Virus record (IMG/VR): IMGVR_UViG_2690316231_000015
Direction: 5' to 3' (one strand)
Origin: a virus
Taxonomy: Duplodnaviria; Heunggongvirae; Uroviricota; Caudoviricetes
DNA length: 8,145 nt
How positions within the stretch are numbered: position 1 is the first letter of the stretch; every line of letters starts with the position of its first letter. The position numbers and the translations under genes were made by a program. Positions 2,781 through 5,779 of the stretch are shown here, one piece after another. The notes under the pieces were generated by a model. That model was not told the origin of the DNA. It made no database searches and saw only the letters and a list, made by a program, of their open reading frames with translations.

Positions 2781-2817
2781 TTTTAATTTCACTGAAATTT
2801 AATACGTGACTTTCAGG

Positions 2818-2847
2818 AAAATGCCTCGCAGATGCGGGGCATTTTTG
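2818..2847 (+). terminator. Rho-independent terminator after Rz (possibly bidirectional)
   Basis: Hairpin AUGCCUCGC (2821-2829) / loop AGAU / GCGGGGCAU (2834-2842): 9 bp with one G-U wobble, followed by UUUU (2843-2846). An A-tract (2818-2820) upstream gives a short U-tract on the other strand. Confidence 0.55.
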
Positions 2848-3139
2848 TACAGGTATTTCACCGCGCACCGCAGCGCACTCAACCACGTCGAACCAAACCC
2901 TTTGGAATGAGCCTTTGAGTAGTCAGTTAGTGCTGGTGAGCCTTGACGGGCTGATCTCCTATGCAGCAAAGGTTCATCTCAAAGTAAGACGAACGCTATG
3001 ACAAACCAAGATTCTATAGACCTATCTGATCTTCGTGGAATGGTCAGTTTTCCAGACAAAAGGTAATCACCATAGTCGTATGGCTATGAATCTTGTTGCT
3101 GCAGATAAGCATTTTGTGATTGAAGTGGTCAAATCTCTC

Positions 3140-3168
3140 AAATGCAGTAAAATGCAGTGCGCTATAAT
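3140..3168 (+). promoter_or_regulatory. Candidate sigma70 promoter for the 206-aa gene (consensus -10, weak -35)
   Basis: Perfect TATAAT at 3163-3168, 28 nt upstream of the ATG at 3197. No good TTGACA match at 16-18 bp spacing. Tandem AATGCAGT direct repeat at 3141-3158 just upstream. Confidence 0.3.
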
Positions 3169-3196
3169 TCAATAACGGAGGGAGTAAGGAGAAGTC

Positions 3197-3817
3197 ATGA
3201 AAGATCAAGATGTTAGGTTCGCGGTGCATCATAAGCTTTTGAAAGAATCGCATTTAGATCCAGACTGCCTTGTGGTCGATGAATTTTCCATATCCCTTGG
3301 CGCCAGTAGAGCAGACATTGCTGTAATAAATGGTGTTATACACGGGTACGAGCTCAAAAGTGAATATGACTCTTTGGAGCGTTTGCCTCTTCAAATCAAG
3401 CATTATTCTTCTGTAATGGACAAGGTTACTCTTGTCGTAGCTGAGAAACACCTTGAGGGAGCATTAAAGTTAATCCCAGGTTGGTGGGGCGTTAAAACGG
3501 TTTCTGTTGGGCCAAAAGGCGCCATTCTTATAAAGCACATGCGTGGAGAAAAGCTTAATCGAAACCATGACACATTGATGCTCGCTCAATTGCTTTGGAA
3601 AGATGAATGTATCGACGTACTTGAACGATGGGGCTATTCCAAAGGAATCAAAAGCAAGCCCCGATTTGAGTTATGGAATATTATTGCGGAAAATATTCCA
3701 ATAGCGAATCTCAGGCCTGAAGTCAGAACAGCCTTAAAGAAACGCGTAGGCTGGAAAGTTAAGGCTTGGCAGGCTGAGTCTGCGCCAACCAATAAAGCTG
3801 TCTCACGACTAACGTAA
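3197..3817 (+). CDS. Hypothetical protein with N-terminal PD-(D/E)xK nuclease-like motif (putative restriction-endonuclease-fold protein)
   Basis: 206-aa ORF with strong RBS (AAGGAG at 3186-3191, 5-nt spacer). Motif E29...D40...E52-L-K54 (VVDEF / RADIAVING / GYELK) in an alpha-beta-beta-beta arrangement typical of PD-(D/E)xK enzymes. Hand-counted GC ~43% in 3301-3400, lower than flanking phage genes. Confidence 0.7.
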   Translation: MKDQDVRFAVHHKLLKESHLDPDCLVVDEFSISLGASRADIAVINGVIHGYELKSEYDSLERLPLQIKHYSSVMDKVTLVVAEKHLEGALKLIPGWWGVKTVSVGPKGAILIKHMRGEKLNRNHDTLMLAQLLWKDECIDVLERWGYSKGIKSKPRFELWNIIAENIPIANLRPEVRTALKKRVGWKVKAWQAESAPTNKAVSRLT

Positions 3818-4826
3818 TATGGTGCGTATGTGCAACTTTACGCCATTCTTTAGAGCCGCCAGATTTGTTAGCGCCTAATGATCTTTGGTAAATGTAATCA
3901 TCCCCCCAACTAAATTTGGAGCCAAAGACTTGATACTCTGGCGAACTAACAAGGGTAGTACATAAGTTTTTAGTTTGGCCCCATCCATTTCCTTTAACTG
4001 CGGTACCTTTTACAAAGATCCATGAGGTATCGTTCGAATATCTCACTGAGACATACTGAGACATGAAGCGTGGGTCTACGCTCGTAATGGTAGAGCTAGC
4101 GGTGGGATAATCACTAAAACTTGGCGTTCTTCCATTGCTAAAATTCTGTACTACGTACATCCAAAGATCGTATTCATGGCGCGGAATATGATGAACTTGA
4201 TGTTGCGGTATCCCTGCCTGTGATGCCGGGTATGCGGTTGAAGATAAAATCAAGTTTCTCCACGGAGCTTGGCCTGATAATGTGTTGACCATGCTTAATG
4301 CTTGTTGTTTTAAACTATCAGTTGCGTTTTGAATATCTCCAAAATCAATGATTACATCAATTAAACTAGGATGAATATTTAAGTGGTTAACCAGACTTGT
4401 GAATTGGTGCCATGTCTGGGGGGTGATAGACATAGCGAGCCCATTGATTAAGTTGCGTTGAACAGCATGTATATAGTTTGTTGAATATGCGGGAGAAACA
4501 ACAGGGATAATTTCCTTACCATTTACTCTAGCATCTTGGATACACATATCTAGAGGATGATGGCGGCTCGAACCATGTTTATCTAAATATTTAACATCCA
4601 GCAAAACAGGACGATTGGCTTTCCAGGATGCCGCAAGGTTAATACCGAAGTCAGATAAGTAAGAACTCAAACTCTTCTTGTAGCATTCGTTTTCATAATC
4701 CCAGTCTATGTCTGGAATGGTAATGATCGGAGTAAAACCAGAGAGCGTAGTTTGATCTAAAAGCATCAGAGATTCATATTCAGCAGGCTTCCATTTCAGC
4801 TGTGGATAATATTGATGTTGACTCAT
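3759..4826 (-). CDS. Hypothetical protein, 355 aa, no recognisable motif; convergent partner of the 206-aa gene
   Basis: Long minus-strand ORF with strong RBS (AAGGAG, plus-strand complement CTCCTT at 4832-4837, 5-nt spacer to the ATG at 4826). Hydrophilic, rich in S/T/N/Q/W/Y/H, no TMD, no Walker motif. AT-rich (hand-counted GC 29% in 4301-4400, 48% in 4201-4300). Its 3' end overlaps the 206-aa gene by 59 bp. Confidence 0.7.
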   Translation of the reverse strand: MSQHQYYPQLKWKPAEYESLMLLDQTTLSGFTPIITIPDIDWDYENECYKKSLSSYLSDFGINLAASWKANRPVLLDVKYLDKHGSSRHHPLDMCIQDARVNGKEIIPVVSPAYSTNYIHAVQRNLINGLAMSITPQTWHQFTSLVNHLNIHPSLIDVIIDFGDIQNATDSLKQQALSMVNTLSGQAPWRNLILSSTAYPASQAGIPQHQVHHIPRHEYDLWMYVVQNFSNGRTPSFSDYPTASSTITSVDPRFMSQYVSVRYSNDTSWIFVKGTAVKGNGWGQTKNLCTTLVSSPEYQVFGSKFSWGDDYIYQRSLGANKSGGSKEWRKVAHTHHITLVVRQLYWLAQTQPAKP

Positions 4827-4868
4827 TAAAACTCCTTAAAATCTTTACTTATCCTAAGTATAGTGTTA

Positions 4869-4893
4869 TGGCGTAACGCCAATTGTTTTTATA
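4869..4893 (-). promoter_or_regulatory. Candidate promoter -10 plus palindromic operator-like site upstream of the 355-aa gene
   Basis: Minus-strand TATAAA (plus coordinates 4888-4893) about 60 nt upstream of the start. 13-bp palindrome TGGCGTAACGCCA (4869-4881) lies between the -10 and the RBS, where an operator would sit. No convincing -35. Confidence 0.25.
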
Positions 4894-5049
4894 CACTTGA
4901 AAACATTGGGAAAAGTTGAGCTATATCTAAATTTACAAAATTGGATGTTATAGAAATCGAGGTTTCAACTAGGCATGGAACTGCAAAATTTTTAATGCCT
5001 GCACGCGAAAGTCGTTGGCGGGTCCTTTCCGGTGATCCAGATCGTTACG

Positions 5050-5061
5050 GGGCGGCGACCT
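5050..5061 (+). other. cos: Lambda-type cos site: cosN cohesive-end sequence GGGCGGCGACCT, with flanking cosQ-like and cosB-like sequence (~5010-5130)
   Basis: 5050-5090 (GGGCGGCGACCTCGCGGGTTTTCGCTATTTATGAAAATTTT) is identical to the left end of the lambda genome as I recall it. Upstream GGGTCCTTTCCGGTGATCC...GTTACG resembles the lambda right end. Downstream CCGTTCTTCTTC (5107-5118) resembles a cosB R-site. Sits ~170 bp upstream of the Nu1-like gene. Confidence 0.85.
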
Positions 5062-5230
5062 CGCGGGTTTTCGCTATTTATGAAAATTTTTAGGGAAAAA
5101 TCAGATCCGTTCTTCTTCTTTTTAACTGATTGATTATCAATAGAATTTTAAAAATATAAAAGGATCTGACAAAGGCTGTTTTTGTTAGAAAACGCCATTT
5201 TCAGATCCTTTCTGGTTCCCGGGGGAGTGT

Positions 5231-5779
5231 ATGAACGTCAATAAGAAAAAACTGGCCGATATTTTTGGCGTTGATGTCAGGACCATCACCGCCTGGCAGA
5301 GTCAGGGGTTACCACTAGTTTCTGGTGGAGGGAAAGGGACTGAATCAGTTTTTGATACAACTGCTGCCATTCAGTGGTATGCGCAGAGGGAAGCTGATAT
5401 TGAAAACGAAAAACTCCGTAAAGAGATCGAGGATTTGAGGGCTGCCAGCGAATCAGACCTTCAGCCCGGCACCATTGATTACGAACGTTACCGACTGACG
5501 AAGGCACAGGCCGATGCACAGGAGCTGAAAAATGCTCGTGAGGAAGGCCTTGTCCTCGAGACGGAGTTATTTACCTACATCTTTCAGCGAGTGGCACAGA
5601 ATATATCAGGGATCCTTGTCCGTGTCCCTCAGACACTGCAGCGTAAATACCCTGATATATCACCCGTACATCTTGATGCTGTGAAAACTGAAATCGCGAA
5701 AGCATCCGATGTGGCTTCTGAAGCCGGTGAGAATGTGCGCAGGTGGATTGATGATTTCAGACGAACTGAGGGCGGCTAA
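5231..5779 (+). CDS. Nu1: Terminase small subunit (lambda Nu1-like; NohA/NohD-type)
   Basis: 182 aa. [103 protein letters not shown] parallels lambda Nu1 (N-terminal winged HTH). GGGGGAG RBS upstream of the ATG at 5231. Confidence 0.9.

Follow-up and report, generated by a model that had tools for sequence, protein, structure and literature searches.

What does a small protein encoded in the late region of a lambdoid prophage do there, if it carries the residues of a restriction-endonuclease-like active site, and could it be the effector of the genetic unit to which it belongs? The question is raised by the window, a stretch of 8,145 nucleotides of viral DNA (Caudoviricetes; IMG/VR record IMGVR_UViG_2690316231_000015), in which a sequence-only reading had recognised a PD-(D/E)xK nuclease-like catalytic motif in a 206-aa protein, with a basic C-terminal half that could bind nucleic acid, and had proposed the protein, provided that it is catalytically active, as a plausible effector nuclease.

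The window corresponds to the late region of a lambdoid prophage of E. coli, in which genes for a class II holin, a YdfR-family protein, a lysozyme and an Rz-type protein are followed by an insert, and the insert by small terminase, large terminase and head-tail joining protein. With a GC content of 0.36-0.45, against 0.50-0.58 in the flanks, the 2.45-kb insert carries the gene of the 206-aa protein and that of a convergent partner, called beta. The features to which we refer are the following (coordinates of the window).

2781-5230, no strand: low-GC insert (moron) with the gene pair, delimited by GC content and by the annotation of the near-identical region of E. coli 55989, flanked by the Rz-type gene, whose last position is 2780, and the small terminase gene, whose first is 5231
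3186-3191, plus strand: Shine-Dalgarno sequence AAGGAG, 5 nt 5' of the ATG, read from the sequence
3197-3817, plus strand: 206-aa cII-like / sce7726-family gene (open reading frame; NCBIfam, PADLOC, Pfam and P4 cII matches; AF2 model)
3281-3358, plus strand: predicted catalytic core, E29 (strand 1), D40 (strand 2) and E52-x-K54 (strand 3), from translation, invariance and AF2 strands
3392-3406, plus strand: Q66-x-x-x-Y70 on the helix after the ExK strand, from conservation of Q66 and Y70 and AF2 helix 63-73
3557-3751, plus strand: basic four-helix C-terminal domain, residues ~121-185, with invariant N121, W134, E137 and R183
3759-3817, no strand: tail-to-tail overlap of the cII-like and beta genes, 59 nt, from stop-codon positions
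3759-4826, minus strand: beta-family partner of 355 aa, TIM-barrel fold with conserved acidic residues (open reading frame; PF14350; predicted structure)
5050-5061, plus strand: lambda-type cosN core GGGCGGCGACCT, a single exact match, with none in shuffles

The last of these, which we take to be lambda cosN, places the module next to cos. It is situated upstream of beta, about 225 nt from the start codon, and the insert fills the gap between Rz and cos, like the cos-adjoining defence hotspot of P4. E. coli E7476 and other strains carry the insert at 100% identity and E. coli 55989 at 99.8%; in 55989, PGAP names the products of the two genes 'sce7726 family protein' and 'beta family protein'. 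The insert is present at a coverage of at least 80% in 126 of 5,426 complete E. coli genomes (about 2%), and in no sequenced phage of the GenBank phage collection. Scans for repeats, promoters and terminators around the module returned matches at chance level only, and an Rfam scan of the window no match.

The gene of the 206-aa protein is preceded by a strong ribosome-binding site (AAGGAG), and the translation of 3281-3358 on the plus strand, EFSISLGASRADIAVINGVIHGYELK, corresponds to residues 29-54, with E29, D40, E52 and K54 exactly where the sequence-only reading had put them. On its own the pattern lacks significance: E-x(8-14)-D-x(9-14)-E-x-K also occurs in 13.6% of shuffled versions of the protein, and D-x(9-14)-(D/E)-x-K in 49%. 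Since the motif means little when taken by itself, the case for a nuclease has to rest on conservation and structure.

Conservation is extensive. A word-indexed search returned 314 homologues, all with precomputed Pfam annotation PF26915, and among 1.84 billion cluster representatives a profile search returned 5,564 proteins at E<=1e-3, 1,389 of them at E<=1e-30. From the word-search homologues, the best 150 cluster representatives, the open reading frames of our genomic loci and P4 cII we assembled a pool of 350 sequences from many phyla. Five residues (E29, R38, D40, E52 and K54) are invariant already in an alignment of 34 homologues reaching down to 39% identity. In the large pool, E29 is a glutamate in all 345 rows without a gap, D40 an aspartate in 347 of 348, and E52 and K54 are the same in 350 of 350. 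Other positions of this region are similarly constrained: S55, D58, R62 and Q66 stand at 99-100% (Q66 in 350/350) and Y70 at 96%. The spacing Q66-x-x-x-Y70 resembles QhxxY, the accessory motif of RecB/Cas4-type nucleases. Near-invariant residues also occur in the C-terminal half, namely N121, W134, E137 and R183.

The structural prediction points the same way. An AF2 model computed from the homologue alignment (pLDDT 89.6, pTM 0.83) has helices at residues 3-14 and 16-20, strands at 25-32, 37-44 and 48-54, a helix at 63-73 and a strand at 76-82, followed by a helix at 83-92, strands at 98-104 and 110-116, four helices within 126-182 and a disordered tail from about 187 to 206. The alpha-beta-beta-beta-alpha-beta core of the PD-(D/E)xK fold is present in the model, with D40 on strand 37-44 and both E52 and K54 on strand 48-54, as in the catalytic motif of that superfamily; the order of the strands puts the predicted catalytic residues on three consecutive strands after a helix, which is the classical arrangement and the one that the sequence-only reading had anticipated. 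Foldseek returned SfsA and splicing endonucleases as the best matches of the model, so that the restriction-endonuclease-like fold expected from the letters was recovered by structure search. Effector and repair nucleases such as Can2/Card1 and NucS, the type II restriction enzymes SdaI, NgoMIV and PaqCI, and SfsA have this catalytic fold in common with the 206-aa protein, with the motif on strands 2-3. A profile search of PDB sequences found no relative of the protein among solved structures, the only matches being chance ones to TFIID bromodomains at E ~0.07. We regard the prediction of a PD-(D/E)xK fold with a complete and invariant predicted active site as secure.

The protein therefore appears to begin with a PD-(D/E)xK nuclease core (residues ~1-116), to continue with a basic domain of helices (~121-185) and to end in a disordered tail (187-206). 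The basic character claimed earlier for the C-terminal half is borne out by its isoelectric point (10.1 for residues 110-206, 6.3 for residues 1-109), and the helical domain possibly binds nucleic acid.

Several profiles place the protein in a named family. The NCBIfam model NF033832 (sce7726) matches residues 1-183 over profile positions 1-182 of 184 at 184.1 bits, far above its cut-off of 70. The PADLOC model 'cll', which represents the cII gene of satellite phage P4 and matches P4 cII itself at 3e-113, recognises the protein at 3.8e-31, phrog_984 matches as well, and PF26915, which every listed homologue carries, is Phage_P4_cII. In a direct BLASTP comparison, P4 cII and the 206-aa protein are 27% identical over their full length (E=3e-19), with the E/D/ExK motif kept; at 264 aa, P4 cII differs by some 70 extra residues at the C-terminus. 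On these sequence comparisons, membership in the P4 cII / sce7726 family is secure. Our own Pfam scan of the protein and 34 homologues gave nothing useful; PF26915 is newer than the local copy of Pfam. An HHpred analysis of P4 cII listed an MmcB-like match at 99.76% probability, together with AHJR-like, NucS and DpnII-MboI matches (Rousset et al. 2022, Table S3). A nuclease affinity of cII is thus already on record, although it was not discussed there. Literature searches on Beta_protein/PF14350, 'beta family protein', MmcB and PF26915/P4 cII found nothing relevant.

The partner gene encodes a Beta_protein (PF14350 at 8e-56), which also matches the PADLOC models PD-Lambda-2_C (4e-32) and beta (3e-10) and is 22% identical to P4 beta, likewise of 355 aa. 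Its predicted structure is a TIM barrel (pLDDT 90.8), with no specific TIM-barrel family standing out. Among 75 beta sequences, with 19-78% identity to the protein of the window, the aspartates D161 and D239 do not vary at all, and D77, D157, R216, Y263, D309, W328 and H336 hardly vary; to judge from these residues, the sequences suggest that beta is an enzyme or a metal-binding protein.

The two genes form a pair far beyond this prophage. When 80 genomic loci (numbered with the prefix L below) were collected with the cII-like protein as seed, from Proteobacteria, Firmicutes, Myxococcota, Acidobacteriota, Chloroflexota, Elusimicrobiota, Melainabacteria-like and candidate-phyla-radiation bacteria, a convergent beta gene stood beside the cII-like gene in 77. 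The 3' ends overlap by 11-158 nt in 75 of these 77 loci; the remaining two have gaps of 14 and 39 nt. A second collection, of viral contigs and with beta as the seed, yielded almost only close relatives. The convergent pair is present in 41 of its 42 contigs: in 39 of them the genes overlap, by 11 or 59 nt, and the other two show gaps of 14 and 341 nt. Because the overlaps are set by stop codons, they are independent of the choice of start codons. We consider it secure that the cII-like gene and beta make up a conserved two-gene unit on mobile elements linked to anti-phage defence.

Some details of the collection concern the pairing itself. Two of the three unpaired genomic loci end at a contig edge, and in the third beta is replaced. 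This is the locus of Xenorhabdus koppenhoeferi (L009:5001-6810), the only one without beta that is not at a contig end: as in the window, the cII-like gene follows an Rz-like lysis gene, and kinase-like and phosphatase-like open reading frames take the place of beta. Where the pair is complete, the overlap is kept across phyla, and full-length mRNAs of the two genes would be complementary at their 3' ends, an arrangement that might serve antisense or transcriptional-interference control.

Two characterised anti-phage systems contain members of these families. The P4 cassette gop-beta-cII defends E. coli against both lambda and P1; Gop, a protein with two transmembrane segments, is toxic without beta, and beta neutralises it (Rousset et al. 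2022). With gop-beta-cII, cell death is set off by orf184, an accessory gene of a phage. PD-lambda-2 is described as three genes, with a HigB-like A, an Xre-peptidase B and a beta-like C and no cII-like component; here B is toxic and neutralised by A, and C is dispensable for neutralisation, yet required for defence (Vassallo et al. 2022). The toxic proteins in these characterised relatives are accordingly Gop or the Xre-peptidase, and cII is given no role in either system.

In P4 the three genes occupy 247-648 (gop, plus strand), 651-1718 (beta, plus strand) and 1746-2540 (cII, minus strand), with the same convergence as in the window, where a cII homologue is likewise present and beta is adjacent and convergent. 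Both sets of genes adjoin cos on a mobile element, a satellite phage in the case of P4 and a lambdoid prophage here. They differ at both ends of beta: the P4 beta and cII genes lie 27 nt apart with a terminator between them, whereas the pair of the window overlaps by 59 nt, and P4 has gop upstream of beta, whereas the pair of the window lacks it. With P4 Gop as the query, phmmer (E up to 10) found nothing homologous in either the window or the 80 genomic loci. Between 4827 and 5184, upstream of beta, its strand contains no open reading frame of at least 25 aa, and the sole minus-strand frame on that side, 5185-5289, overlaps the start of the terminase gene. A gop-like third gene in the window was therefore rejected, for want of a Gop match and of a candidate frame upstream of beta. 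The A and B genes of PD-lambda-2 are absent from the window as well, and only the C-type beta is present. Without a gop homologue, the predicted nuclease is one of only two candidate effectors in the module.

Elsewhere the same pair is found with different additions. A HigB-like gene and an Xre-M78 peptidase gene precede beta in 14 of the 80 loci seeded from cII. In one of them (L057), PADLOC recognises PD-Lambda-2 A, B and C at 1e-37, 7e-140 and 7e-42, and a convergent cII-like gene follows as the fourth. All five loci examined after seeding with B (L134-L138) have B, then beta, which is convergent with a Phage_P4_cII gene and overlaps it by about 50 nt; one of the five is beside a CBASS operon, and others are beside integrases. 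A bare pair with no toxin genes is found in enterobacterial P4-like satellites and in Acinetobacter prophages. The variety of additions to one and the same pair implies that beta and cII are the constant core and the toxin genes interchangeable; the beta-cII pair is the core common to gop-beta-cII and PD-lambda-2.

A fourth, convergent Phage_P4_cII / sce7726 gene was consistently observed at PD-lambda-2-type loci (L134-L138, L036, L055, L057 and L074), where it overlaps the 3' end of gene C, the beta-like one, by some 50 nt. A further combination occurs in E. coli 2014C-3075 (L139:1592-4689), where genes for a GNAT acetyltransferase and an ImmA/IrrE peptidase precede beta, in this order, beta is convergent with an sce7726 gene with an 18-nt overlap, and a relaxase gene adjoins.

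The validated PD-lambda-2 clone, from ECOR42, ends 396 bp past gene C, and a convergent cII-like gene needs about 520-580 bp. Any such gene in ECOR42 would consequently be truncated in a clone that still protected, and the cII partner may thus be dispensable in PD-lambda-2, if ECOR42 has one.

The positions that the pair occupies are typical of inserts expressed in lysogens: between Rz and cos, beside a CI-like repressor, in P4-like satellites and beside CBASS. In the Acinetobacter prophages (L130-L133:5001-7620) beta lies directly downstream of a CI-like repressor gene (HTH_3 + Peptidase_S24) on the same strand; in the window, the pair sits in a low-GC insert of the late region. The exclusion genes rexAB of lambda are expressed by the lysogen and stand beside cI. 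The position in Acinetobacter is analogous, which implies expression of the pair in the lysogen, although rexAB has no relationship to the beta-cII pair in sequence or fold.

What, then, does the pair do? The most probable answer is an exclusion module carried by the prophage, with the nuclease and beta acting together. The lysogen would express both genes, beta would either restrain the nuclease or sense infection, and upon superinfection the nuclease would cut nucleic acid, be it phage or host DNA, and so block the incoming phage. The effector role of the 206-aa protein is what we infer here, as are its nuclease activity and substrate, control by or cooperation with beta, and the exclusion of superinfecting phages by two genes. 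As a whole, the reading that the protein is a catalytically competent PD-(D/E)xK nuclease and obligate partner of beta, within a horizontally acquired, toxin-less anti-phage module of the prophage, is in our judgement rather probable.

The main rival exchanges the roles: beta would be the effector enzyme and the cII-like protein a regulator, an antitoxin or a DNA-bound sensor that uses its fold to recognise nucleic-acid structure. Several observations are in its favour. The invariant D77, D157, D161, D239 and H336 of the beta TIM barrel are of the kind usual in metal-dependent active sites, PD-lambda-2 does not defend without beta and its clone probably lacks an intact cII-like gene, some databases call cII homologues 'regulatory protein', and the convergent overlap would allow antisense control. 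A pure regulator, however, would not need four catalytic residues and a QxxxY motif that are invariant across phyla, and the neutralisation of Gop by beta in P4 fits a controller better than a killer. We therefore consider this exchange of roles unlikely.

Alternatively, the two genes might work in the manner of restriction and modification: beta would modify DNA or a nucleotide, as TGT/DpdA-type DNA-modifying enzymes do, and the nuclease would cut unmodified incoming DNA. We rate this possibility as quite improbable.

A further possibility is a DNA-repair or recombination nuclease like MmcB that serves the phage or its host and has no part in immunity. The MmcB-like model (PF06319) matches neither the 206-aa protein nor any of 34 family members in a Pfam scan with E up to 10, and the MmcB-like structure 3dnx (SPO1766; 146 aa) lacks the C-terminal helical domain. 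To our knowledge, MmcB genes stand alone and are not paired with beta. The cII-like gene, in contrast, always has beta as its partner and is located in defence hotspots, in satellites and at insert sites of prophages, and the P4 cassette has a measured anti-phage activity, all of which makes a repair function very improbable. That the motif is a chance match, as its frequency in shuffles (14-49%) might suggest, or that the protein is an inactivated pseudo-nuclease, is hardly credible in view of the invariance in 350 sequences, the confident AF2 model and the specific fold neighbours, by which a chance motif is computationally excluded.

For an exclusion module built on a predicted nuclease and beta, it has to be distinguished what was known before. 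The family and its name, the beta partner, the defence activity of the P4 version and the tabulated remote nuclease homology are already on record. What is new is that the catalytic residues are invariant throughout the family and that a structure search assigns the fold; that the convergent genes overlap so strictly; that one pair is the core of both gop-beta-cII and PD-lambda-2, cII being a fourth PD-lambda-2 gene not reported before; and that a toxin-less beta-cII version occurs in a lambdoid prophage.

In the validated systems gop-beta-cII and PD-lambda-2, attention has so far been on the toxin genes. The locus of the window points instead to a predicted nuclease with an intact site and a TIM-barrel protein as the core of both, and it offers a simple two-gene construct with four mutable positions (E29, D40, E52 and K54) for probing this core; the published PD-lambda-2 constructs may have left out a conserved component. 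One could go further, in a scenario that we offer as speculative and still doubtful: beta-cII would be a complete and widespread two-gene immune module, the ancestral chassis for swappable toxins (Gop; HigB and Xre-peptidase; GNAT and ImmA/IrrE peptidase), cII the default effector and, in PD-lambda-2, a fourth component that had been overlooked, and the antisense overlap of the mRNAs a switch between guarded and firing states.

Two minor observations concern the left edge of the insert. Positions 2781-3001 match the 3' end of rha, the anti-repressor gene, in P22-like Salmonella phages at about 87% identity, and by this similarity look like the remnant of a gene, left in the space that separates Rz from the insert. 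At 2822-2850, shortly after the end of the Rz-type gene, a GC-rich hairpin is followed by a run of T (ATGCCTCGCAGATGCGGGGCATTTTTG); this element, unlisted by the consensus scan, looks like an intrinsic terminator.
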